Source: Candidatus Nitrosopumilus koreensis AR1
GTDB lineage: Archaea; Thermoproteota; Nitrososphaeria; Nitrososphaerales; Nitrosopumilaceae
Assembly: GCF_000299365.1 (NCBI RefSeq)
Contig: NC_018655.1
Span: 90,001-122,000 of the forward strand
Reading direction: 5' to 3'
DNA length: 32,000 nt
Below the pieces are notes generated by a model, which had not been told where the DNA came from, ran no database searches, and worked only from the letters and a program-made list of their open reading frames with translations. A program made the position numbers and the translations under genes. Below are positions 18,760 through 31,802 of this stretch, piece after piece (positions within the stretch are counted from its first letter, which is position 1; each line of letters opens with the position of its first letter).

Positions 18760-19209
18760 TTATATTTCAAATAAATAAAAAACGTCATACAATTTTTGAT
18801 TTATGTATTTCACTTTTCTTTCTTTTAAGAGATTTAGTTTTGGTTCAATTTTTTGAAAAAGCTTTGGAAAATTCTGTTTCCAATATTTATTATTATTACC
18901 ACGGTATGAAATAGAAGTTAATGTTTCAGAGTATGATTCAAATCCAAAAATATATTTTTTTGATAATTTCAACATCTTTTTAATAATCTCTTCAACTGCT
19001 TCAGGATTGATATGCATTAAAACTCCTGATGTAAATACTAAATCAAATGATTTTTCAGGTAATTCCAAATCTTCTATGCTTGAATTGTAAAATTGTACAT
19101 TGGGATATGTTTTTCTTGCAATATCTATTGCTTTTGAATTAATTTCTACTCCTGATATTTTTGTAAATCCCATTTTTTTAATATGGAAAAATTTTTTCCT
19201 ACATTGCAT
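18760..19209 (-). CDS. SAM-dependent methyltransferase, C-terminal fragment (frameshifted)
   Basis: This frame reads ...KKFFHIKKMGFTKISGVEINSKAIDIARK...FDLVFTSGVLMHINPE..., which is post-motif-I methyltransferase sequence. Confidence 0.65.
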   Translation of the reverse strand: MQCRKKFFHIKKMGFTKISGVEINSKAIDIARKTYPNVQFYNSSIEDLELPEKSFDLVFTSGVLMHINPEAVEEIIKKMLKLSKKYIFGFESYSETLTSISYRGNNNKYWKQNFPKLFQKIEPKLNLLKERKVKYINQKLYDVFYLFEI

Positions 19210-20251: not shown

Positions 20252-20899
20252 TTAGAAAATATAATTTGAATTTGCACCATCAAAGTTTATTGTAACTCCT
20301 GACAAGTACTTTATTTTATTCTGAATGATTGATTTTACAAAATTTCCAATCTCTTCAGGCTCCCCGAGTCTCTTCATTGGTAGAGATTGTTTGTATTCTT
20401 CAACATTTTCTATTAATTCCTGAGTCCTGTCAGTGTTGATTGGCCCTGGTGCAATATTGATACAGCTGACTTGATTTTCAGCATATTCCTTGCTTAATAC
20501 CTTGAAAATTTCAGCAAATGCTGCACGATATGCTGATGAAATTATTAATTTTGAATTTGGTTCTTTAATTACGCTTGAACTGATCAAAAAGATGTATCCG
20601 TTATCGCTGATCTTGATGTTTTGTAGAATAGTAACGAATCCCAAGAATAACTGATTGTGATATAGGTTCCAGTCCTCTTCCGTAATTGTTGCAAATGGCT
20701 TTGGGGAAGGTCCGCCGGTATTCAGAACAAGAATGTCTGTCTGAGTGTTTTTTTCCACAAATCTTCTAACGCTGCTCAAATCTGACGTGTCGATGTCTTT
20801 TCTAGAGGCTGCAAATACCTCTACACCTATGGACTTTAACGATTCTGAGATTGCCCTTCCTATTCCCCTTGAACCGCCCAGTACTATTGCGCTAGCCAT
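20252..20899 (-). CDS. short-chain dehydrogenase/reductase (classical SDR)
   Basis: AIVLGGSRGIGRAISESL cofactor motif, ...YRAAFAEIFKVLSKEY..., ...INIAPGPINTD.... Confidence 0.75.
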   Translation of the reverse strand: MASAIVLGGSRGIGRAISESLKSIGVEVFAASRKDIDTSDLSSVRRFVEKNTQTDILVLNTGGPSPKPFATITEEDWNLYHNQLFLGFVTILQNIKISDNGYIFLISSSVIKEPNSKLIISSAYRAAFAEIFKVLSKEYAENQVSCINIAPGPINTDRTQELIENVEEYKQSLPMKRLGEPEEIGNFVKSIIQNKIKYLSGVTINFDGANSNYIF

Positions 20900-20977: not shown

Positions 20978-22759
20978 CTATGCACTGATGTAATGCCATT
21001 CTGTGTCTTGTTCAAGTCCTACCAGCCCGTAAATTATGCTCATCATGGAGTCCTTTGGATGATTGAATTCTTTTTTGGCATCCAGTCTGGTATCAAGATC
21101 TTTCTTTAGATCCTTTCTTGTAACAGAGCAGAGCTCTGAGATCAACCATTCAGTCTCATATTCTCTGCTAGCAGAAAAAGGGATCATGAATTTAGATCTA
21201 GGATGGCCGCCTCTTGGATGGTGTCTTGATGTCTCAATCAGGTCGATGAATTTTTGTATCTGCGATGTCTTGTCAATCAAGATTCTGCCCGTCTCTTCCC
21301 CGTGCTCGTCTATCTTGTCACGATGAATCTGCATTGGCTTGCTCTCATTACTGATACTGCGGCATCCGTAGAAATTCTCGCTTCCAACTCCTGGAAACAT
21401 CCTACCGGAAGTTCTATTGGCACCGCCGTCCTGAATTGTCTTGACTTGTATTGCACCGTACCCCAAGTCCCCCACACCGATGTCCCACCTGCTTGCCCGA
21501 AACAACTCATTGATGTGTTCTGTTTGATCTAATTGGTTCTCAGATGGTCGCTTGTCAATGTACGCAAGCTGAATCCTGTCATACTTTTTCCAGTGAATCA
21601 AAATTGATATTACTGTACTTGACGGATTTCCAGAACCAAAGTCCACTCCCATAGATATTTTGATGGAATCTTTCATCACGTCCTTCCACATTGCAATCTC
21701 ATGCGGTTCCATCAACCCAAGATACCTGTAAGGATTCATGCAGGAGAGTACCATCTCCGGCGTGATTGGCCGTCCCTCTGACCTGTAAAATTTACCCATC
21801 ACGTGAGATGTAAAGTAAGACTTTGAATTGTTCTTTTCCTGGTATTCTATGGAGTAGAATGGGGATGTACGATACTTGTTTGTGGAATCGTCAATGGTCA
21901 GCGCGTTTGTTGCAAAAATTGTCTGCGGCAGATGATATCCGTGGTATATTGCATTTTCCGTGTTTTGCGGAACCCACCTTCCACTCAGAACCTCTTCAAG
22001 ATAATCTCCGACAACCAACCCGTTGCTGTCAAACCGTAACATGTCTCTCCAGTTGTGGTTGTCATAAACCCATTCCCGCTGATCAGATCTTTTCCACAGT
22101 TTCTCGTATGGCGAACCGAACTCACCACCCAATCCGAGAATCGACATCTTGCCTTTTGTTGCCATCATTGTCTGCCTTACCTTCTCCAAATGCTCAATGT
22201 CTTGGTACTGCGCCTCGTCCAGTATGCAGTGGTTCAGAGATTTTCCCTCTACGTGAATGTACTGGTTGTTGTCTGTCATGCAGTATATCGTGCTGCCGTT
22301 TTTCAGCGAAATCTCTCCCATGTTTCCAAGCTTATTGCGAGGAAACTTTGACAGTACTGGGTTCTGGCTAAACGTGCCAATCTGAAGTTTCTGTTTGGAA
22401 AAGCCAGTCAAGCTAGATTGGTTAAACGTGACATACCCAACCTGGATGCCGGGACTGGATGTTGCCTCGCATGCAAGCATGTCTGAGATGTATGTTGACT
22501 TGTAAATCTGCCTGCCTCCAACTATGATCTTCGAATGATAGTCGTCCATGTAGATGTCCTTCCAAAAGGGCGCAGTAAGAAACGTCCTTCTTTTCCCTTC
22601 TACTGTGGGCCGAGCCTTTTCTATCCATTCCAAAGGATCTGTTGGCAATGTGATGAGATGTGATGATCTTTTTGCACGTCTTTTCTTTATCTTGTTGATT
22701 GCATCTTTTGCAATCTTTCTGTGTCCCACATTCCAACTACTAAACAGCGCCATTTTCAA
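20978..22759 (-). CDS. terL: terminase large subunit (TerL), ATPase plus RNase H-like nuclease
   Basis: 593 aa. Deviant Walker A VGGRQIYKST and Walker B NHCILDEAQ. Nuclease acidic motifs are ISMGVDFGSG, IGVGDLGYG and HPKDSMMS. It is preceded by, and overlaps, a small HTH gene in a terS-terL arrangement. Confidence 0.75.
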   Translation of the reverse strand: MKMALFSSWNVGHRKIAKDAINKIKKRRAKRSSHLITLPTDPLEWIEKARPTVEGKRRTFLTAPFWKDIYMDDYHSKIIVGGRQIYKSTYISDMLACEATSSPGIQVGYVTFNQSSLTGFSKQKLQIGTFSQNPVLSKFPRNKLGNMGEISLKNGSTIYCMTDNNQYIHVEGKSLNHCILDEAQYQDIEHLEKVRQTMMATKGKMSILGLGGEFGSPYEKLWKRSDQREWVYDNHNWRDMLRFDSNGLVVGDYLEEVLSGRWVPQNTENAIYHGYHLPQTIFATNALTIDDSTNKYRTSPFYSIEYQEKNNSKSYFTSHVMGKFYRSEGRPITPEMVLSCMNPYRYLGLMEPHEIAMWKDVMKDSIKISMGVDFGSGNPSSTVISILIHWKKYDRIQLAYIDKRPSENQLDQTEHINELFRASRWDIGVGDLGYGAIQVKTIQDGGANRTSGRMFPGVGSENFYGCRSISNESKPMQIHRDKIDEHGEETGRILIDKTSQIQKFIDLIETSRHHPRGGHPRSKFMIPFSASREYETEWLISELCSVTRKDLKKDLDTRLDAKKEFNHPKDSMMSIIYGLVGLEQDTEWHYISA

Positions 22760-23210
22760 TCATATACTCCTTGATTTCCCTGGATAGTACTATGTCTGCA
22801 GTAGGAGTGACTGTGAGGTTTGTCTTTTTTAGAATCATGTCTGAAATTTTTTCAATCAGCAAAATACTTGTCTTGTAGATGTTGTTCTCAAGATTTGGTA
22901 TTCCGTTATTTTGCTCAATGCTGTATGTGATTTGTTTTTCTAGCGTTTCTTGTATCTTGTAAAGCTTTGACAGTTGGTTGTCTAGCGCAATATTGGAGTT
23001 TGAGATTATGATCTTTGATCTTTTAACAAAGTCTGGGTGTTCCGTAGATGCGATTTCGTCATACCACTTTTTGTAATATTTTTTTACAGTGTTGTGATTG
23101 ATCTTTGTCTCTCTAGATGCAATAGACACGGTCAACATTTTTTCAAAGTATGGCCGCAACTTTTTTTCAATACGCAATTGGTCTGCTTTGCTTGGCCTAC
23201 CTTTATTCAC
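22740..23210 (-). CDS. HTH DNA-binding protein, terminase small subunit candidate
   Basis: 156 aa. The N-terminus MNKGRPSKADQLRIEKKL...SIASRETKINHNTVKKYYKKW is HTH-like, followed by a coiled-coil-like region. It overlaps the terL start by 14-20 nt. Confidence 0.5.
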   Translation of the reverse strand: MNKGRPSKADQLRIEKKLRPYFEKMLTVSIASRETKINHNTVKKYYKKWYDEIASTEHPDFVKRSKIIISNSNIALDNQLSKLYKIQETLEKQITYSIEQNNGIPNLENNIYKTSILLIEKISDMILKKTNLTVTPTADIVLSREIKEYMIENGAV

Positions 23211-23759: not shown

Positions 23760-24824
23760 ATGTTGAATCCAGTAATTTATGCCGGCATAGCGTGCGGTTC
23801 AATCGTAGCCATTTTGGGGATTTTCATTGCACTGGATGCAAATTCCGCATCTCAACTCCAGTTCACTGCAGTAGAAAACGAAGATTTTGATTTCATGTCA
23901 TTGTCAATGGATAGCACTTATGCCGTTTGTAATCCAACAGGCTTTCCAACAAGTTTTGATAAAATCTACGCTCAACTATATTACAAAAATGACGAGGTAG
24001 CTGATTTTACGATATGGGGCTCTTCAATTCCTGCGGGAAAGGCAGTTGACGTTGATGGGAGAATTGACATTAACGCTCAAACTGTCTTGCAAATGTTCTT
24101 GGGAGCGTTTGCTGGCGCTTTTGCAGGCCAGACGCAAGAATTTGATGAAGAAGACGTAACGATAATTCTGAAAGTTGAAAAATCACTTCTTGGTTTCATA
24201 CCGTACACATATGAAAAACAAATGTCCAGCGGGAATTTGGACGACATACAAAAATTCTTTGTCAGCACAACCGATGCAAAATGGGATTGTGATTATTCTC
24301 CAAAACAACAACAAGATTATGAAGAAAGAGGATTTGACACATCAAAACCACTGTCAGAAAACATAGAACGCGAAAGCACGATTACAAAGATTAACCAAAT
24401 CAAGGAAAGCAAGGAGAATTACAGAAAAACAGTTTCTGCTTTGTATGACTGGGATTCCATCTGGTATGATGAAGAAAACAATGTCACGATATCCAACAAA
24501 TTTGATCAAATTTTAGGCGTTTATGAGGATTATCCAACAAGCGTCTGCAAGGGTGATGTGGTGAGTATTCGTGGAAAATTATTAACTTCTGAAGGGATTC
24601 CAATCAGAGATTATCTGATTACTCTTGATGAGGAAATTACTTTAAAACGCCTAGACAATGTTAGGACAGATTCTGATGGAAATTTTGAATTTCTTTGGGT
24701 TGCAGAACATGTTAGACCTGCAGTAACCTATTCGCCATTGGGCAAAATGAGTTTAGAGATGTTAATGGTTGACACTCCGGAAAATTTTATTCCTGTGAAA
24801 GTTATTGAAGTGTGGGATTGCTAG
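23760..24824 (+). CDS. N-terminally membrane-anchored protein with beta-sandwich (CarboxypepD_reg-like) C-terminal domain
   Basis: The N-terminal hydrophobic helix is VIYAGIACGSIVAILGIFIAL. The C-terminus GDVVSIRGKLLTSEGIPIRDYLITL...RTDSDGNFEFLWV resembles carboxypeptidase-regulatory-like folds. The middle region is LEA_2-like (weak). Confidence 0.55.
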   Translation: MLNPVIYAGIACGSIVAILGIFIALDANSASQLQFTAVENEDFDFMSLSMDSTYAVCNPTGFPTSFDKIYAQLYYKNDEVADFTIWGSSIPAGKAVDVDGRIDINAQTVLQMFLGAFAGAFAGQTQEFDEEDVTIILKVEKSLLGFIPYTYEKQMSSGNLDDIQKFFVSTTDAKWDCDYSPKQQQDYEERGFDTSKPLSENIERESTITKINQIKESKENYRKTVSALYDWDSIWYDEENNVTISNKFDQILGVYEDYPTSVCKGDVVSIRGKLLTSEGIPIRDYLITLDEEITLKRLDNVRTDSDGNFEFLWVAEHVRPAVTYSPLGKMSLEMLMVDTPENFIPVKVIEVWDC

Positions 24825-24906
24825 ATTCCAAGATCCCATTTACTATACCGCAAATTATTCAAGAAAAAACAACAAATGCTTAAGTTCATACAAAAATTTT
24901 AGATGT

Positions 24907-25134
24907 ATGGCCGTAACAATTTCAGGCATTGTTGAGAAAACAATTGCAGGTATTTTAGGCGGTTTGGTGGTTTTACTTCTTGGAAATTATGCAAAAATCG
25001 AAACATTACAAAATTTTGTGAATGCAGTTTCCCTTAACGATGCTATTTTAATCACAATCATCATAATTGTCGGGGTAATTTTGGCAATATTGGTGATTAG
25101 AAGGAGAAGAAGGTGGCATTGGGTCTCAGGCTAG
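24907..25134 (+). CDS. small two-helix membrane protein
   Basis: MAVTISGIVEKTIAGILGGLVVLLLGNY...AILITIIIIVGVILAILVIRRRRRW has two hydrophobic helices and a poly-Arg stop-transfer tail. The ORF-track N-terminal extension from 24805 overlaps the previous gene and looks non-coding. Confidence 0.5.
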   Translation: MAVTISGIVEKTIAGILGGLVVLLLGNYAKIETLQNFVNAVSLNDAILITIIIIVGVILAILVIRRRRRWHWVSG

Positions 25135-25186: not shown

Positions 25187-26041
25187 CTATTTTACAATAG
25201 AATATTCTGATTTCCCACTAATGATGTCCCATTTTACTAATTTTAATTCCGCAAGACGGCCCATGGTTGCAACCCTTTCTGAAGTTACAGAATATACCTT
25301 ATCTGCTTCGTCAGGATTGTGGATTCTTAGATACTCAATCCATTCTTCTTTGAATACATCATCTAATTCATCAGAAGACATTTTTTTAGTTTCTAGTTCT
25401 TTCATAATCCGTTTAACTACTTTATTCTCAAAATCAAATTTTGAAATTATTTGTTTACGGATTAGTTTTACTTCCTCATTTGAAAAATTAGAATCAAATC
25501 TATCTTCATCTAATATAGGATTTTCTAGTATTGCAAATTCTTTTCCTAAATCAGACAATGTAAGAAAACAGCCATCATCATTAATTTTTGCTCTAACCAG
25601 TCCTAATTCAAAACATGCACCTTTAAAATCCAAATCTTTTTTAAGAAAACGTCCAACGAATTGTTCTTTAAAACGAAGTTCACTTGCAGCTATTTTATCT
25701 AATTTTTTCTTTTTCTTAACTCCCTTCAAATTTTTTGTTTCGGATTTTGGCAAGGGCAATCCTGTCGAGAGTTTTTCATTTCGGCCCAACTCATTTTCAT
25801 CTTCATATGCTTTTAATTGATCTGATACTCTTTCTGCATACTCAAATGATTTTTCTCTTAACTCGTCTAATGAGAACCAAATTTTGTTTGTTGATGTAAT
25901 TAAATTTGCTAATGTCCGTACAATAATTTTAACAGGAAAAAATCTATTGTAAAACGTCCAAATCATAGAACCATATGATAAGATAATTTCATTTTTCTCA
26001 GTTTCAACACCTGTTAGTAATCCATGTAATTCTCTTTGCAT
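25187..26041 (-). CDS. hypothetical protein (no recognisable catalytic motif; possibly winged-helix-containing)
   Basis: 284-aa ORF, Lys/Glu-rich, that I cannot assign to a family. It overlaps the upstream RHH ORF by 38 nt and might be fused to it (see findings). Confidence 0.5.
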   Translation of the reverse strand: MQRELHGLLTGVETEKNEIILSYGSMIWTFYNRFFPVKIIVRTLANLITSTNKIWFSLDELREKSFEYAERVSDQLKAYEDENELGRNEKLSTGLPLPKSETKNLKGVKKKKKLDKIAASELRFKEQFVGRFLKKDLDFKGACFELGLVRAKINDDGCFLTLSDLGKEFAILENPILDEDRFDSNFSNEEVKLIRKQIISKFDFENKVVKRIMKELETKKMSSDELDDVFKEEWIEYLRIHNPDEADKVYSVTSERVATMGRLAELKLVKWDIISGKSEYSIVK

Positions 26042-26243
26042 TTCTTTGATTATTTTTTTTAATTTCTAAATCGAGTGGTTTTGAAGAACCGATACCTTCA
26101 GTTGAAGATTCTGATTGTTCTTCTTGAATTTGATTGTTTAATGCAATTTTGATAAAATCATACAAATCATCATATTTTCCATCTTTTACCAAATCCTCAA
26201 TCTTTTTGTATAGATCGCTATCAATGTCTACCTTGATTAGCAT
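26004..26243 (-). CDS. ribbon-helix-helix (CopG/Arc-like) DNA-binding protein
   Basis: MLIKVDIDSDLYKKIEDLVKDGKYDDLYDFIKIALNNQIQEE fits the beta-strand/helix/helix RHH pattern, followed by an acidic/Ser-rich linker. Confidence 0.6.
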   Translation of the reverse strand: MLIKVDIDSDLYKKIEDLVKDGKYDDLYDFIKIALNNQIQEEQSESSTEGIGSSKPLDLEIKKNNQRNAKRITWITNRC

Positions 26244-26246
26244 GGG

Positions 26247-26383
26247 TGTATTTCGTGCCTGTATTATTTAAAATATATAGTAAAACACTCTAAATATTCA
26301 ATGTATTTCGTGTTATACATAGATCCATATGTTATATCCTTTTTAGATACTCTTTTATACTGTATAATACTCTTTATACTGTA
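26247..26383. promoter_or_regulatory. divergent promoter/operator region with two sets of direct repeats
   Basis: TGTATTTCGTG occurs at 26247-26257 and 26302-26312. The tandem pair ATACTCTTTTATACTGTA (26347-26364) and ATACTCTTTATACTGTA (26367-26383) ends 3 nt before the PIN ATG. Both tandem copies contain TATA-like TTTATA. Confidence 0.5.
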
Positions 26384-26386
26384 GGT

Positions 26387-26815
26387 ATGGCAACCGTACA
26401 GTTTGAATCGATGTTGGCTTTAGACTCTTGTGTAGTAATTGCTACAATCAAGAGTCCAAAAATAGCCAGAAAAATTATCCGCATTTTTAGAGGAAACAAT
26501 AGCAGAGTAATCCTTCAAGATGTAGTCTTAAAGGAAGCATCAAAAATTCTTGGAATTCCAAAAGAAGAAGTCCTAGAAAAAATCAGCGCAATTCTCAGAA
26601 AAGAGGTACAGGTATTTACAACAACTGACTCTATGAGAAATGAAGCAACTAGATATGAAAACCAATATGGGATATGTCACAATCCAGACAGTAAAATTCT
26701 AGCTGCGGCAAAGACATTTTCCTGGACACTTCTTACTATGGATAAGAAGATGCTTCAGACTGCAGAGTTTGAAGGAATTTTAGCACTAAACCCAGTATGG
26801 GTGGGAGGAAAATAA
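26387..26815 (+). CDS. PIN-domain nuclease (VapC-like fold)
   Basis: The conserved acidic positions have the expected spacing: LALDSCVVIA (beta1 Asp), ...LKEASK..., ...NPDSKILAAA..., ...LLTMDKKM.... Confidence 0.65.
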   Translation: MATVQFESMLALDSCVVIATIKSPKIARKIIRIFRGNNSRVILQDVVLKEASKILGIPKEEVLEKISAILRKEVQVFTTTDSMRNEATRYENQYGICHNPDSKILAAAKTFSWTLLTMDKKMLQTAEFEGILALNPVWVGGK

Positions 26816-27360
26816 AATTGCCTCATTATTACTTTGATATTGAGACTACGGGACTAGACCCAAAGGTAGATGAAATCCTAACCATTCAATATCAAAAGAT
26901 TTCAGTTCATACAGGTGAAGCTGTAGGCCCACTGACAATTCTGTCTAGTTGGGAATATTCCGAAGAAGACATTGTAAAAGAGATTGCAGTCAACATGCTA
27001 GATGAATACCCTTGGAATTTCGTTCCGGTTGGAAACAATCTGACATTTGAGTTCAAATTTCTGTCTGAGAAATTTAGAAAATATCTTGGAACAGAAATTG
27101 ATGTAGAGTTTTTTGTTACAAGACCTCACATAGATCTCAAATCAGTAATGATACTTGCAAACTCTGGCAAATTCAAAGGATGTCACCTAGTACTTGGAAA
27201 ACAGGGCAATGGCTCTGAAGTTCCAACATGGTATGAAAACGGAGAGTTTCAAAAAATTATTGAGTATGTAAAAGACGAGGCAAATTGTTTTCTCAACTTT
27301 ACATCAGAAGCACAGAAAGTATTGGGAAATAGATTCACGGGAGGACAAAGAAATGTCTGA
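26797..27360 (+). CDS. DEDD-type 3'-5' exonuclease (RNase H-like fold, YprB/PolB-exo-related)
   Basis: Exo I is YYFDIETTGLD. Exo II-like is PVGNNLTFEFKFL. The C-terminal ...IIEYVKDEANCF is Exo III-like. It overlaps the PIN gene by 19 nt. Confidence 0.65.
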   Translation: MGGRKIKLPHYYFDIETTGLDPKVDEILTIQYQKISVHTGEAVGPLTILSSWEYSEEDIVKEIAVNMLDEYPWNFVPVGNNLTFEFKFLSEKFRKYLGTEIDVEFFVTRPHIDLKSVMILANSGKFKGCHLVLGKQGNGSEVPTWYENGEFQKIIEYVKDEANCFLNFTSEAQKVLGNRFTGGQRNV

Positions 27361-27481
27361 CAATCAAAGAGTTGTAAAACTTCCTTCGCAAGTTATTCTT
27401 TTAGTGCTCAAAACTGAGGCTAGAATGGACGAATTTCTGGCAAAACAGGCACAAAAATTGGAGGTTGAGGGTCTTGTCTAA
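27353..27481 (+). CDS. small 42-aa ORF (hypothetical)
   Basis: My translation is MSDNQRVVKLPSQVILLVLKTEARMDEFLAKQAQKLEVEGLV*. Its ATG overlaps the exonuclease stop (ATGTCTGA), and its 3' end overlaps the next gene's TTG start. It is not in the ORF track because it is under 60 aa. Confidence 0.3.
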   Translation: MSDNQRVVKLPSQVILLVLKTEARMDEFLAKQAQKLEVEGLV

Positions 27482-28001
27482 TTCCAAAATCCAAATTTCG
27501 GTAAATGCAATCAAAGGTAAAATTGCCGAAGAGATTGCAAAACAAGATTATCTAAGAAACGGATTTGAAATTCAAGAAACAGGAATTGGAAGTGACTTTA
27601 TTGCAGTAAAGAAAACAAACGATACCATCTACAAAGAATACGTAGATGTAAAGTCCGGCAATGCAAGACTGACCAAGAAACAAAAAGAAACTAAAAATCA
27701 ATTAAGAAAAGAAAACATCTGTTACTCCATATATCGTGTTACAAACCAACATCTAGAATTCCAAATTCAAAATAATCCTCAATTGCAACAACTTTGCCAA
27801 TACTTGGGATTTGACATTTCTCAATATGCCGGAGTGTTTGTTATTCAGGATCCAACTAGTTGTCCTAATTGCGGGTTAGGCGGTGAAGGCTTGCAAGAAA
27901 TTCTATCAAAGTTTGGACTACGCAACATGGGAAATGGAACTGTCAGAGTTCAATCTTGGTGTAGAAATTGCAGGAACTATTCAAGGAGAGGAAAAAAATG
28001 A
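27465..28001 (+). CDS. PD-(D/E)xK nuclease (VRR-NUC/Hjc-like) with C-terminal zinc ribbon
   Basis: GKIAEEIAKQDYLRNGFEI...GSDFIAVKK...YVDVKSGNARLTKKQKE gives the E...D...(D/E)xK...Q pattern. The C-terminus CPNCG...CRNCRN is a zinc ribbon. The start is TTG. Confidence 0.6.
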   Translation: MRVLSNSKIQISVNAIKGKIAEEIAKQDYLRNGFEIQETGIGSDFIAVKKTNDTIYKEYVDVKSGNARLTKKQKETKNQLRKENICYSIYRVTNQHLEFQIQNNPQLQQLCQYLGFDISQYAGVFVIQDPTSCPNCGLGGEGLQEILSKFGLRNMGNGTVRVQSWCRNCRNYSRRGKK

Positions 28002-28156
28002 GATGCAAACTATGCAATTCAGTTCACAAGAATACTTCTAGATACCAATCATGGATTGAACATCAGATATGTCGTACATGCTCTTATGTATTGGATATCT
28101 TTTCTTGGAACTCAAATTATCTTAAAGAGTATTGGGAGGTATCTTTTGCTTCCTGA
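27998..28156 (+). CDS. small zinc-ribbon protein (52 aa)
   Basis: MRCKLCNSVHKNTSRYQSWIEHQICRTCSYVLD has CxxC...CxxC. It has an ATGA overlap with the nuclease stop (ATG 27998-28000, TGA 27999-28001). Confidence 0.45.
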   Translation: MRCKLCNSVHKNTSRYQSWIEHQICRTCSYVLDIFSWNSNYLKEYWEVSFAS

Positions 28157-28415
28157 ATTAATTCCGTCTGTCTCTAGGCATTTTTTGTATTCTATACTAG
28201 AAGATAATCACAAAAGTGGAATGGCAATAATAGAAACCATGGCAGAAGCCCGTCCTGAAGAAATAGGAGAATTTTTGTCTTCCCTAGCTAATTGCCTTGT
28301 TTCTTATTTCTACCAATTAGAAACAGGCTTTAGTGATTACGAGAAAATTCGAATTCAGGCACTAAAAGCACTAAAGAATCCTGATTATGAGGATAACGTG
28401 GAGGAGTGTAATTGA
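28056..28415 (+). CDS. hypothetical protein (start uncertain; acidic helical C-terminus)
   Basis: 119-aa ORF with a TTG start that overlaps the previous ORF by 101 nt. Only the C-terminal part (MAIIETMAEARPEEIGEFL...) looks protein-like, so the true start may be the Met at 28221. Confidence 0.35.
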   Translation: MNIRYVVHALMYWISFLGTQIILKSIGRYLLLPELIPSVSRHFLYSILEDNHKSGMAIIETMAEARPEEIGEFLSSLANCLVSYFYQLETGFSDYEKIRIQALKALKNPDYEDNVEECN

Positions 28416-28481: not shown

Positions 28482-29156
28482 TTGGAGGTTTTAATTTTGG
28501 AAACTAGTTTTTTTGACAAGTTAAAGCCATACAAACCAGAGCAGTACAGTTCGAATATCACATTAGACAAACTTGTAACTGTGGGATTGCTAAAATTGGA
28601 TGAAGCAAAAATCGAAAAAAGCTTTGACAATGTTGTGGTGATATTACATAAACTGTTCCCAGAAAAATTCTCGCTAATTACATATCCTCAATATCCTGAC
28701 TCCATTAGAGTTGATAACACACTTAGACTGGATGCAAAAAAACACAGCAAGTATCTTACAGGCAATAGGGTTCAAGGATACGAATTAACCAGTTTAGGAA
28801 AAATCACAGCTGAAGATACACTTGTACAACTAAGTTCATCTAATTCTAGAATAGTTAACAAAATCTCCGGAACTCAAAGAAATAGAGCAACAAGGGCAAT
28901 TGGAGGCGTAAGTAATTCTGATGCATTTAAAAAATATTCTACAAAACAATTTAAGGAAATTAACAGATTTGATGTATGTAGTTTTCTTCATGGAACATTA
29001 GAAACAGATAACGAGAAATTGTTAGCAAACCTCAAAGTCCTAAAGAGATTTGCAAAAGATATTGGAACTCTAAAAGAGTTTGAAGACATATCAAAACAAA
29101 CTTTAGAATTTTTTGATTATATTGAAAAGAATTGGGAGGAGTATTCTCATGACTAG
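28482..29156 (+). CDS. hypothetical protein, first gene of GHKL cassette
   Basis: 224-aa ORF with a TTG start and no motif I can assign. Its stop overlaps the GHKL gene start (ATGACTAG, 29149-29156). Confidence 0.5.
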   Translation: MEVLILETSFFDKLKPYKPEQYSSNITLDKLVTVGLLKLDEAKIEKSFDNVVVILHKLFPEKFSLITYPQYPDSIRVDNTLRLDAKKHSKYLTGNRVQGYELTSLGKITAEDTLVQLSSSNSRIVNKISGTQRNRATRAIGGVSNSDAFKKYSTKQFKEINRFDVCSFLHGTLETDNEKLLANLKVLKRFAKDIGTLKEFEDISKQTLEFFDYIEKNWEEYSHD

Positions 29157-31383
29157 AACTGGCAAAAAACTAATGGCATTAGATGACCGTCTTGTAAGTA
29201 GAATTCAAGAAAGGGGAACTAGGGGAAATGTAATTAAAAGTCTAGCTGAATTGGTCAAAAATTGTGATGATGCTTATGACAGATTAGAATTACAAGGAGA
29301 AAAGACAAGTGGAATTATAGAAATCGGTTATTGGAAATTACCAAAAGGCAAAGGGTTCAGTGTTTCAGGATTTTTTGTAAGGGACTTTGGTGCAGGAATG
29401 TCAACGGAGCAACTAACAAATGCTTACTTTAGTGAATCTCCAGACAAAGGAAACTATGGAAGTGACACTAGTGGAGATACTAGAAATGGTGCCATAGGGG
29501 TAGGCGGAAAGGACTGTTTCAAAAATATGGTCGATTGCCTAATTATTTCTGTTAAAGATAATCAGTTGACAGTTGCAGATATTGAAACAGATGTACGTAC
29601 AGATCGTCTAGCAAGCGAGATTATCTCAGGAGAAGATGCAACACCGTATTTGCAACAAGTAAATAACATGCTAAAAAATTCTGCCGAGTCAATTGACTTA
29701 TCTAAAAACCAAACATTTGCCATGTTCAGACTTCCTGAACATCATAGTGGTTCAAGAACAGATACTTTGGCCGAACAACTAACCAACTTTTACACTCTTA
29801 GATGGATTATGGAATCAAATATTCGTAAAGTGAAATTAATCGATGTAACAACTGGTCAAACATCAATATTAAAACACATTCCCACTCCAGGAGAAGTAAT
29901 TTTTGAAAAATCATTTACCATTCCGTATTCTAATATCGGTTATGACGTACTAGTACAAATCAAAAAATCTGAAACGGACTTGGATCATAAAAGTGACTTT
30001 GGGGAAAATATTCTGATAAAGGATAATCGAGGTGCAATTTTAGATAACAAACTGTTTGGATATGAATCGGATTCTGGTGCAAATAGAATATTTGGACAAG
30101 TTGTAATTAATGATTGGAAAAAACTTTACAGATTAGAAAAAGGAAAAATTCTAACTGATCAACGTGAAGGGCTAGATTATAATCACAAATTCAACAAACT
30201 TTTAGAACAGATAATCAGAACACACCTAAAACCGATTATTGATGCTGAGAAAGAAAAACAAGGCAGTAATCCTAGGCTTGAACAAGGCTTAGACAAGAAT
30301 ATCAAAAAAGCATTTGCGTTTATCAACAAAATTATGATGAAGGATCCTGATGCGGGAACTCATGAAGAAGAACTTCCTGATGTGCCCCCAGAAGGAATTG
30401 AATTTTCAAAACCATCATTAACAATTCCATTTGAAAAAACAAAAAAACTCAAATTATTGTTAAATCCCGGTAGAGTTCCAACTAATTCTGAAATTGCATT
30501 ACGAGTATTTGGTGAGGCAATCACAATAAGTCCTGAAAATTCCATTAGTGCTCCTGGAACATATGACGTAGATGTCCCATATGTGGAAATTGAAATTACA
30601 GGAAAGAAGTTAAACGCAAGAAGTACTCTAAAGGCCTATTTTGGGGAAATGGTGGCAGAAACAGAAATTTTTGTTGTGCCAGAACAATTTTTCCAGCCAA
30701 AACATGGTTTTGCATTTAAGCCCTCCAAAGCCAATTTGATTCCAAAAAAATCGCGAAAAATTAAACTTGTCATAGATACAAATCTTGTAGATCCGGGCAC
30801 ACCAATAGAGATCTCTTGTGATGATGAGAGAGTTGAATTTTCACCCAAAAAACTTACTGTTACAAATCCTCCAAATCTTGGCAAATATCTCACCGAAGAA
30901 ATAATAGAAATTTCATGTAGTAAACTGGGATTAAAGGCAAAGTTAGTTGCTGAAACAAAGACGAATGCAGGTGAAGACAGACAAGCAATATGTGAACTAG
31001 AAGTTAAAGAAAAAGAGCCTCCAAAACAATTTTTCAAAGACTATGAACTAGATCCTAAAGGAGAAAAAAGAGTTCGTTCAAGATTCAAAGATGGAATTAT
31101 CTATGTTCACGTAAATGCTCCTATTTTGTTATTCACTTTTGGTAGAAATCAAAAGAATCTCAGAGATAAGAAAGCAGAGGCCATCTTTATGTTGGCAGAT
31201 ACAGTTGTTCAGAGAATGGCAATGGAATGGGCAACATGGAAGGCCGATAATAATAAACTCGATATACTATCTGATAGAGCTACAGAAATTCAAGTTGAGA
31301 AAAACAGTATTGAATACGAATACGGTCTTCAAATTCATCAAATGATAGTTCAAGGATTTACAAAAAAACTAGAGGATCTTTAA
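29149..31383 (+). CDS. GHKL (Bergerat-fold) ATPase, MORC/paraMORC-like, with tandem beta-rich C-terminal repeats
   Basis: N-box SLAELVKNCDDAYD, G1 box FFVRDFGAGMS, G2 box NGAIGVGGKDCF. The start is placed at MTRTGKK (29149), preceded by GGAGGA at 29135-29140. The ORF track begins at 29113. 744 aa. Confidence 0.7.
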   Translation: MTRTGKKLMALDDRLVSRIQERGTRGNVIKSLAELVKNCDDAYDRLELQGEKTSGIIEIGYWKLPKGKGFSVSGFFVRDFGAGMSTEQLTNAYFSESPDKGNYGSDTSGDTRNGAIGVGGKDCFKNMVDCLIISVKDNQLTVADIETDVRTDRLASEIISGEDATPYLQQVNNMLKNSAESIDLSKNQTFAMFRLPEHHSGSRTDTLAEQLTNFYTLRWIMESNIRKVKLIDVTTGQTSILKHIPTPGEVIFEKSFTIPYSNIGYDVLVQIKKSETDLDHKSDFGENILIKDNRGAILDNKLFGYESDSGANRIFGQVVINDWKKLYRLEKGKILTDQREGLDYNHKFNKLLEQIIRTHLKPIIDAEKEKQGSNPRLEQGLDKNIKKAFAFINKIMMKDPDAGTHEEELPDVPPEGIEFSKPSLTIPFEKTKKLKLLLNPGRVPTNSEIALRVFGEAITISPENSISAPGTYDVDVPYVEIEITGKKLNARSTLKAYFGEMVAETEIFVVPEQFFQPKHGFAFKPSKANLIPKKSRKIKLVIDTNLVDPGTPIEISCDDERVEFSPKKLTVTNPPNLGKYLTEEIIEISCSKLGLKAKLVAETKTNAGEDRQAICELEVKEKEPPKQFFKDYELDPKGEKRVRSRFKDGIIYVHVNAPILLFTFGRNQKNLRDKKAEAIFMLADTVVQRMAMEWATWKADNNKLDILSDRATEIQVEKNSIEYEYGLQIHQMIVQGFTKKLEDL

Positions 31384-31400: not shown

Positions 31401-31802
31401 ATGGATGCCAATCAAAAAGATTCTGCATTCCATATTGACATTAGTGATTTAGAGGAAATTGAAAAGAAAGAAAGAAAAAGAAAATACATCAATGAATATC
31501 AAAGAAAATATGCCAAAAGATCATATGTAAAAGATAAACTAAGCAAACAAAAACAAAACAAAACACTAACTGAAAAAATTAAGAAACTAGGAACAGAAGA
31601 TCCACATAGGATTTGTAAAAAATTGGGACGTACTAGAGCATACGGACGACGACATCCAGAATACTTTTACCGATGCTCAAAATGTGATGTGTCTTATTCA
31701 GATAAAGAAAAAGAGCATTTCTATAAAGAAAACAAATGCCCATGTTGCCATTTGATGTTAAGACAAAGGAAAACTGTTACTCAAAAGAAAAGTCTCAATT
31801 AA
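31401..31802 (+). CDS. basic zinc-ribbon protein (hypothetical, probable nucleic-acid binding)
   Basis: 133 aa. The N-terminal half is Lys/Arg/Glu-rich (EKKERKRKYINEYQRKYAKRSY). The C-terminus has CSKC...CPCC cysteine pairs. Confidence 0.5.
   Translation: MDANQKDSAFHIDISDLEEIEKKERKRKYINEYQRKYAKRSYVKDKLSKQKQNKTLTEKIKKLGTEDPHRICKKLGRTRAYGRRHPEYFYRCSKCDVSYSDKEKEHFYKENKCPCCHLMLRQRKTVTQKKSLN

Follow-up and report, generated by a model that had tools for sequence, protein, structure and literature searches.

We analysed a 32,000-nt stretch of the Candidatus Nitrosopumilus koreensis AR1 genome (contig NC_018655.1, positions 90,001 to 122,000; hereafter the window) and found that it carries a string of nine or ten co-directional genes on the + strand, starting at 26387 and running to 31802. 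The string joins a block of three predicted nucleases of different fold to a cassette encoding a GHKL ATPase (cassette A), and it lies opposite a divergently encoded multi-domain protein of 351 aa, here called div351. We judge the chances to be about even that this locus is a MORC/paraMORC-type, restriction-like defence module borne on a mobile element, with its own regulator and an optional block of several nucleases. The predicted cassette content at related loci (a methyltransferase, a match to a type II restriction endonuclease model, and an EVE plus AspBHI_N-like protein) is restriction-like and favours this reading. An earlier note on this DNA, made from the letters alone, had ended the operon at 28415; the string was found to go on through the 219-aa, 744-aa and 133-aa genes to 31802. 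The features of the locus are as follows.

25187..26243, - strand: div351, 351 aa, with a predicted RHH-like N-terminus (ribbon-helix-helix, RHH), a helical domain and two winged-helix domains; frameshifted in the AR1 assembly
26244..26386, no strand: divergent intergenic region, 143 nt, with two pairs of 11-nt direct repeats
26387..26815, + strand: predicted VapC-like PIN nuclease, 142 aa; Pfam PIN, conserved acidic tetrad; optional member of the block
26818..27360, + strand: predicted DnaQ/PolC-like DEDD(y) 3'-5' exonuclease; probable start TTG 26818, the longest open reading frame (ORF; 187 aa) starting at ATG 26797
27353..27481, + strand: 42-aa micro-ORF, with GGAGG 9 nt upstream; kept only in close relatives (9 loci, plus L173)
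27474..28001, + strand: predicted VRR-NUC/Hjc-like PD-(D/E)xK endonuclease, 175 aa, with a C-terminal four-cysteine Zn ribbon
27998..28156, + strand: 52-aa CxxC...CxxC Zn-ribbon protein; ATGA overlap with the PD-(D/E)xK gene; homologues at 14 loci
28146..28415, + strand: acidic helical protein, 89 aa; start TTG 28146 rather than 28056; homologues of 87-96 aa at 11 loci
28497..29156, + strand: 219-aa protein, first gene of cassette A; strongly conserved and carrying the motif GYxLTxxG
29149..31383, + strand: predicted 744-aa MORC/Topo VI-B-like GHKL ATPase (AlphaFold2 and Foldseek, Bergerat motifs)
31401..31802, + strand: 133-aa basic Zn-ribbon protein, last gene of cassette A; homologues after the GHKL gene in L103/L104, L173, L174 and L175-L178

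Gene starts were chosen by a GGAGG-like motif 7-10 nt upstream together with the N-termini of homologues. The exonuclease start at TTG 26818 is 2 nt past the PIN stop, TTG 27474 gives the PD-(D/E)xK gene an 8-nt overlap with the micro-ORF, and TTG 28146, with GGGAGG 7 nt upstream, gives the acidic protein gene an 11-nt overlap and a product of the same length as that of NCBI (likewise 89 aa). The earlier note had reported overlaps at all five junctions of the block. Those of ATGTCTGA and ATGA are as claimed, whereas two of the five (19 nt and 101 nt) are artefacts of taking the longest ORF, because GGAGG-like motifs and homologue N-termini favour internal starts. The 219-aa and 744-aa genes share a ATGACTAG overlap.

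Recurrence of the Gene Order

The order div351 (- strand), optional PIN gene, exonuclease gene, PD-(D/E)xK gene, optional Zn-ribbon gene and optional acidic protein gene was recurrent over about 35 Nitrosopumilales loci (given L numbers here), and because it is repeated in that many independent loci the order is more than chance. The div351 gene adjoined the exonuclease gene divergently at 35 loci and the PD-(D/E)xK gene followed the exonuclease gene at 32, with the triad of all three present at at least 30; the possibility raised earlier that the genes never co-occur elsewhere is thereby removed. The PIN gene, listed in the earlier note as part of the operon, proved to be optional, being present at 17 loci only (about 40%) and missing from about as many, with an unrelated 137-aa ORF in its place at three. 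The Zn ribbon of the PD-(D/E)xK protein, the 52-aa Zn-ribbon protein, the acidic protein and the 42-aa ORF, all proposed from the sequence, recur in homologues or at other loci.

A GHKL cassette was found downstream on the same strand at ~25/25 loci with enough downstream sequence to be informative, and these cassettes belonged to four unrelated GHKL families. Synteny thus strongly supports a link between the block and the downstream GHKL cassette, as the earlier note had suggested. No solo nuclease block, lacking a defence-type cassette downstream, was observed among the informative loci. A minimal island at L171 occupies about 7.4 kb between the host TFIIB and CDC48 genes and holds nothing but div351, the nuclease genes, the GHKL cassette and the methyltransferase gene, with no integrase or replicase. 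At L175 the genes were collinear, gene for gene, with those of L173 on both sides of the block position, and because the two loci are collinear except for the block, the block is a discrete unit of insertion or deletion.

A different core was found at L179 (754-9272), where a distant div351 homologue (423 aa) faces genes for a PIN-like 187-aa protein, a 70-aa ORF, a 1302-aa helicase, a 624-aa DUF1998/MZB protein and a 159-aa PLD protein. Here a div351-PIN pair alone occupies the block position, and the predicted helicase/DUF1998(MZB)/PLD trio makes a DISARM-like set behind a related regulator.

The exonuclease family was widespread in archaea, with neighbours that were not conserved in DPANN, Bathyarchaeota and others (80 GTDB archaeal genomes). 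Because its neighbours vary in those lineages, the exonuclease family in general has no fixed link with the module. Carriers of the module included L002, with a Pfam integrase beside tRNA-His, and L109, with a recombinase-like gene beside tRNA-Lys. Some carriers have their own replicases, either PrimPol-D5_N-SF3 (L105) or PriX (L007, L101). Defence-type neighbours of the loci comprised OLD-TOPRIM, TIR, TIR-NACHT, SNF2-methyltransferase and EVE-AAA_5 proteins.

Three Nuclease Families

All three nucleases are real families with intact catalytic motifs, as judged from profile matches and conserved residues, and the three folds assigned in the earlier note (PIN, DEDD exonuclease, PD-(D/E)xK) were borne out on both counts. 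The PIN protein matched Pfam PF01850 (E = 1.5e-8) at 35.7 bits against a gathering cut-off of 23.6, and each residue of its acidic tetrad (D13, E50, D101, D119) was at least 90% conserved among 13 homologues.

The exonuclease matched PF13482 RNase_H_2 above the cut-off (1.9e-7) and the PADLOC DEDDh model (7e-6). Its nearest solved structures in a PDB profile search were the exonuclease domain of PolC (2p1j, 8.5e-5) and DnaQ (2.9e-3). D14, E16, N81, D113 and Y157 were invariant among 27 sequences, with E161 nearly so, and the protein fits the Exo I (DxE), Exo II (Nx2-3[FY][DE]; N81...E/D85) and Exo III ([HY]x3-4[DE]; Y157...E161) motifs. The product of the 187-aa ORF is thus a predicted DnaQ-like exonuclease of the DEDD(y) type.

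The window's PD-(D/E)xK protein matched VRR_NUC (9.7e-5) 1 bit under the cut-off. Across its family VRR_NUC was matched by 12 of 16 members (best 8.2e-7) and Endonuc_Holl by 6 of 16, and the core pattern E...D...(D/E)xK...Q was invariant at E19, D41, V59-K60 and Q70. This protein is a predicted nuclease of the VRR-NUC or archaeal Hjc-like type. About half of the family has the C-terminal CPNC...CRNC Zn ribbon, a portion that in the window protein matched PHROGs lacking functional annotation. A PDB sequence-profile search with the PD-(D/E)xK protein gave nothing significant.

The Divergent Protein div351

In the AR1 reference assembly the div351 gene is frameshifted: an extra T at 26050, relative to Nitrosopumilus sp. 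SJ, splits it into ORFs of 284 and 79 aa. The gene is intact in strain SJ and in more than 100 homologues; the 106 homologues, of about 343-425 aa, have no recorded Pfam domain. The earlier note had named a divergent RHH here as the only one. Its divergent orientation stood, and the RHH ORF (26004-26243) turned out to be the N-terminus of div351, the RHH itself comprising the first ~45 residues.

In the AlphaFold2 model of div351 (pLDDT 86.8, pTM 0.78) an N-terminal RHH-like segment is joined by a disordered linker to a helical domain, which is followed by two winged helices. Foldseek searches with this model returned winged-helix matches only (TubR, ArsR/SmtB, MukE/F), with no global structural analogue in PDB or BFVD, and a PDB sequence-profile search with the protein gave nothing significant. 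RHH_8 was weakly matched by 7 of 13 family members. On the model, div351 is probably a multi-domain DNA-binding regulator of the operon. The intergenic region that it shares with the PIN gene contains the repeat TGTATTTCGTG at 26247 and 26302 (copies 55 nt apart) and the repeat TTTATACTGTA at 26354 and 26373 (spacing 19 nt), the latter ending 4 nt ahead of the PIN start codon. These 11-nt repeats are candidate operators or promoters, and they were not conserved at the other loci examined.

The GHKL Protein and Its Cassettes

The 744-aa protein was modelled by AlphaFold2 (pLDDT 83.9) with a Bergerat fold and S5 transducer domain at residues ~1-400, tandem Ig-like beta-sandwiches at ~415-655 and C-terminal helices. 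Foldseek matched the model to MORC2 (9cdj, 7e-9), Topo VI-B (2q2e, 1mx0) and Hsp90 over ~430-510 columns. The invariant residues of its family (GHKL family A) were E34, N38 and D41 in the N-box, D79xGxG83 in G1 and G117xG119xK121 in G2. The window protein had no Pfam match, while some homologues carry PF13589. According to the structural model it is a predicted GHKL protein of the MORC / Topo VI-B / MutL group. The 219-aa gene invariably precedes the GHKL gene; its product gave no PDB or Pfam match and no recognised nuclease motif, and the GYxLTxxG motif suggests a winged helix.

Four cassette types were distinguished. Cassette A (219-aa, 744-aa and 133-aa genes) was found in the window and at L103/104, L090, L173 and L174. 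Cassette B, at at least 13 loci including L171, consists of a Zn-ribbon-GHKL protein of ~650-710 aa, a helical ~310-aa protein and a convergent N6/N4 methyltransferase that scored as an ordinary type II/III methyltransferase (1.6e-70). Cassette C (6 loci) combines a GHKL protein of ~530 aa, which matched the PADLOC type II restriction endonuclease model (REase_II, 2e-5), with a ~190-aa protein. Cassette D (L093) encodes a 583-aa EVE + AspBHI_N/SRA-like protein, a 515-aa protein in which GHKL motifs I and III were recognised by eye, and a 193-aa protein.

When GHKL families A and B were compared by hhalign, the motif I-II stretch alone aligned, with low probability, and on these alignments the two are treated as unrelated beyond the fold. 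A Topo VIII / mini-A identity was considered for cassette B and rejected, the ~310-aa partner having no conserved acidic or tyrosine motif of the Toprim or 5Y-CAP-like kind. On the exonuclease tree, cassette A occurred in two clades, D within an A clade and B in several; because the types interleave in this way, the cassettes have been exchanged.

Location on the NitKor-E1 Element

The nuclease operon is inside NitKor-E1, a cryptic integrated element of Ca. Nitrosopumilus koreensis AR1 listed at NC_018655 110866-126269 with the attachment site (att) CCCTTGAAC (Table S2, PMC6563490), so that the locus has already been published as part of that element. The att 9-mer occurred exactly twice in the window and its continuation (L169), 15,395 nt apart, and both copies agreed exactly with the published coordinates. 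The operon lies within the element because these repeats flank it; the location on a mobile element suggested in the earlier note is thus verified.

20866..20874, no strand: left att of NitKor-E1 (CCCTTGAAC), from the published Table S2 (PMC6563490) and an exact 9-mer match

This left copy corresponds to NC_018655 110866, and the right copy lies outside the window at window-equivalent 36261 (NC_018655 126261-126269). A tRNA-Arg(TCG) gene (L169 16282-16356) was also considered as integration target and rejected, since it lies ~1.4 kb past the right att and has no repeat within the island; the 9-nt att CCCTTGAAC explains the element boundaries in its place. The first 20.9 kb of the window are host DNA with sugar/glycosylation genes and aIF-2B, at a GC content of 27-31% up to ~20 kb. 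The right end of the element carries a 405-aa HTH-tyrosine-recombinase-like gene, whose product shares 52% identity with that of the gene opening the L005 element.

The published account describes TerS/TerL, a PD-(D/E)xK nuclease and a tyrosine integrase in NitKor-E1, and the same genes were found here. It reads the PIN and RHH genes as VapBC and adds a PD-(D/E)xK restriction endonuclease (PMC6563490). The exonuclease, the GHKL cassette and the multi-locus module are not described in the main text of that paper.

The exonuclease gene is identical on AJVI01000005.1 of Nitrosopumilus sp. SJ, and the AR1 window differs from the SJ record by just two 1-nt indels over 15.2 kb (19172 and 26050). The two indels are either assembly errors or genuine inactivating mutations.

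Comparison with Known Systems

Scans of the operon proteins against PADLOC-DB v2, PHROGs and NCBIfam identified no named defence system, with matches at the domain level only. This agrees with the earlier note, which had recognised none; the PADLOC-DB v2 matches were weak and to single domains. The same note had held that conservation in a known virus replication module would speak against its proposal. In tblastn searches div351, the exonuclease and the PD-(D/E)xK protein gave zero matches in 50,697 phage/archaeal-virus records. IMG/VR pattern scans, which can miss distant relatives, found div351 at 0 loci and the exonuclease at 1 locus, and IMG/VR single-protein scans with the exonuclease and the PD-(D/E)xK protein found no matches. 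A virus replication module was rejected on the essential absence of these families from the virus collections searched.

The module most resembles the MORC/paraMORC restriction-modification operons, in which such GHKL proteins were predicted together with nucleases and methylases in 2008 (Iyer, Abhiman & Aravind, PMC2292703). Both combine a GHKL + S5 ATPase with PD-(D/E)xK nucleases, to which the cassette B loci here add a methyltransferase, both are mobile and patchy with a defence-island context, and the logic proposed is like that of MutL working with a nuclease. A GHKL gene in a conserved operon with one or more nuclease genes was present at ~25/25 informative loci. The differences are that an SF-II helicase occurs in ~70% of the operons described (PMC2292703) and in none here, that the present module adds a DnaQ-like exonuclease, an optional PIN protein and a regulator with RHH and winged helices, and that it is archaeal (Nitrosopumilales), whereas the survey held only three archaeal MORCs. 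The window GHKL is too divergent for Pfam HATPase_c_3, and its paraMORC likeness is at the level of the group, with no specific family assigned.

A second precedent is GHKL-Shedu (VcSduA, type I-D), a GHKL-PD-(D/E)xK system of demonstrated anti-phage activity (PMC12137116). It too combines a GHKL ATPase with a PD-(D/E)xK nuclease, though as one polypeptide with a DUF4263 nuclease; here the two are separate genes with others between them and the nuclease is VRR-NUC/Hjc-like. No PADLOC Shedu match was found among the module proteins. The reading of the locus as a MORC/paraMORC-type defence module fits both of these precedents.

There is also a likeness to mismatch repair (MutL-MutH-ExoI/ExoX-Dam), which shares the GHKL + S5 ATPase, the small PD-(D/E)xK nuclease, the DEDD 3'-5' exonuclease and, in cassette B, an adenine/cytosine-N methyltransferase. 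The module nonetheless has no MutS-like sensor or UvrD-like helicase and is mobile and patchy, not part of the core genome, so that the resemblance is one of logic, not of orthology. BrxR/CapW-type regulators are encoded upstream of diverse defence operons. Like them, div351 is a divergently encoded, predicted winged-helix protein ahead of differing cassettes (four GHKL families and one DISARM-like set); it differs in having no detected WYL domain or sequence kinship, in its RHH-like N-terminus and in having no global structural match.

Proposed Function and Alternatives

If the locus is a defence module of the kind proposed, div351 would bind the repeat-bearing intergenic region and control the operon. 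A GHKL dimer could then act as an ATP-driven DNA clamp or sensor that licenses the PD-(D/E)xK protein to nick or cut foreign DNA, and the exonuclease, with the PIN protein where present, would degrade the DNA from the break, in parallel with MutL-MutH-ExoX and Dam methylation. Self and non-self might be told apart by methylation or by the reading of modified bases, with methylation providing self-protection in the versions that bear a methyltransferase. The nuclease block would be an accessory effector add-on to a GHKL cassette able to exist alone.

Several points weigh against this reading. A defence function is favoured by genomic context only, and gene order is the sole ground for supposing that the nucleases would cooperate physically with the GHKL protein. 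The methyltransferase linked to cassette B at at least 13 loci has no counterpart in the window's cassette A or elsewhere in NitKor-E1, and PADLOC offered no convincing model match for the GHKL, div351, 219-aa or PD-(D/E)xK protein. No helicase was found inside the module at any GHKL locus. At L174 the PIN gene is truncated and the exonuclease gene lost, and at L181 a frameshifted div351 gene lies directly against cassette B with all nuclease genes lost. Cassette A occurs widely without the block, both at L172 and in a cluster that 24 or more contigs share (L175-L178), and an 81-nt gap with a TTTATA (TATA-like) motif precedes the 219-aa gene. Because cassette A often lacks the block and this gap separates the two, block and cassette may be independent units in one hotspot.

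The main alternative builds on these last observations and takes the locus as two independent systems in a shared hotspot, with the block a self-contained defence or addiction unit and the GHKL cassettes separate restriction-like systems. The solitary cassettes, the collinearity of L175 and L173 save for the block, the 81-nt gap with its TATA-like motif and the exchange of cassettes relative to the exonuclease tree all agree with it. We nevertheless consider it unlikely: a same-strand GHKL cassette followed the block in ~25/25 informative loci, four unrelated GHKL families are hard to explain through a hotspot alone, and no solo block was seen.

It is quite unlikely, in our estimation, that the block serves the element itself as a recombination, genome-processing or replication module, for example by resolving or trimming intermediates while div351 binds an origin or centromere. 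Replication modules of archaeal viruses and plasmids commonly include Hjc-like resolvases and exonucleases, the block is found on integrative elements, the winged helices of div351 resemble the plasmid partition protein TubR at the domain level, and no recognisable replicase was found in NitKor-E1 or in the L005 element. Yet several carriers (L105, L007, L101) have replicases of their own, the L171 island sits between host genes with neither integrase nor replicase, and the virus collections searched contain essentially none of these families. That the block is constantly paired with GHKL, methyltransferase and EVE cassettes also points toward a restriction-like function.

The published annotation, a VapBC pair (RHH antitoxin and PIN toxin) beside an unrelated PD-(D/E)xK restriction endonuclease (PMC6563490), is probably wrong and has very little chance of describing the locus: the PIN protein is indeed of VapC type, an RHH-like N-terminus is encoded divergently from it and the distant div351 homologue of L179 is likewise paired with a PIN protein, but VapBC is unlikely because the RHH is just one end of a conserved multi-domain protein of 351 aa, the two genes diverge where canonical VapBC genes are co-directional and overlapping, and the PIN gene is optional, with roughly half of the loci lacking it among those that retain the div351, exonuclease and PD-(D/E)xK genes. 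No small co-directional antitoxin gene lies directly upstream in a conserved pair, as in type II VapBC, and the PIN gene is packed against the exonuclease gene.

Within the defence reading, a more far-reaching proposal can be offered tentatively, as one that is rather less than likely to hold. The block would be a portable, separately regulated "effector booster" placed before at least five unrelated defence cores (four GHKL and one DISARM-like, the last in reduced form), and, combined with the GHKL ATPase and a methyltransferase, it would make up an archaeal restriction pathway of a kind not known to have been described, following mismatch-repair logic from a MutL-like clamp through a MutH-like nick to ExoX-like resection. 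The literature searched gave no account of the conserved module or its regulator, nor of the invariant link to swappable GHKL cassettes or the natural deletion variants.

Although ammonia-oxidising archaea are abundant worldwide, little is known of their immune systems and mobile elements, and no function is assigned to most of the genes on their integrated elements. MORCs silence transposons in eukaryotes, and to our knowledge prokaryotic MORC-type systems are almost untested. The locus defines a compact, recurrent archaeal module of a putative regulator, three predicted nuclease types, a proposed GHKL clamp and, in some versions, a methyltransferase or a reader of modified bases. With its natural deletion series (L175 minus the block, L174 minus the exonuclease, L181 minus all nuclease genes), it is a concrete system for studying cooperation between MORC-like ATPases and nucleases.

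Further Observations on the Element and Related Loci

At the loci with the closest exonuclease relatives (L090, 663-1076 and 1772-2140; also L089, L091 and L092) the PIN gene is replaced by the 137-aa ORF, and in L089-L092 an extra 122-aa ORF lies between the micro-ORF and the PD-(D/E)xK gene; neither ORF had a Pfam match. The module is flanked at L101 (6794-7939) and L106 (5374-7935) by an adenylate/guanylate-cyclase-domain protein (381 aa) and a TIR-NACHT-pentapeptide protein (853 aa), which add to the neighbours of defence type. On the 2.36-Mb Nitrosopumilales-type contig of L172, the region 1-22283 carries cassette A without the nuclease block together with two C5 DNA methylases, DDE transposase fragments, a second gene pair (119 aa + 739 aa) and a 707-aa HATPase_c_3 protein, and resembles a cluster of GHKL paralogues.

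On its left side NitKor-E1 has its att in the 5' end of a short-chain dehydrogenase gene (ORF 20252-20899, - strand), and integration was therefore intragenic; the N-terminus of the dehydrogenase may be contributed by the att repeat. Between the att sites no virion genes other than terminase were found. The terminase large subunit (TerL), termed "enigmatic" in PMC6563490, is full length (593 aa, window 20978-23210, - strand) with a 156-aa gene upstream. Its tblastn match to phage TerL covered 83% of the query (best E = 1e-22), and the GC content of the two genes was 36-45% (TerL 44.6%) compared to ~27-37% in the remaining window. A terminase-like fragment was also present at a second module-bearing locus (L099 3421-4341). 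Two + strand genes lie between the terminase genes and div351 (window 23760-25134), encoding a 354-aa protein with an N-terminal hydrophobic segment and a 109-aa protein with a membrane-like segment, and neither had homologues at any other module-bearing locus. In the host DNA left of the element, the T missing at 19172 in AR1 compared to SJ cuts a host methyltransferase from 215 to 149 aa.

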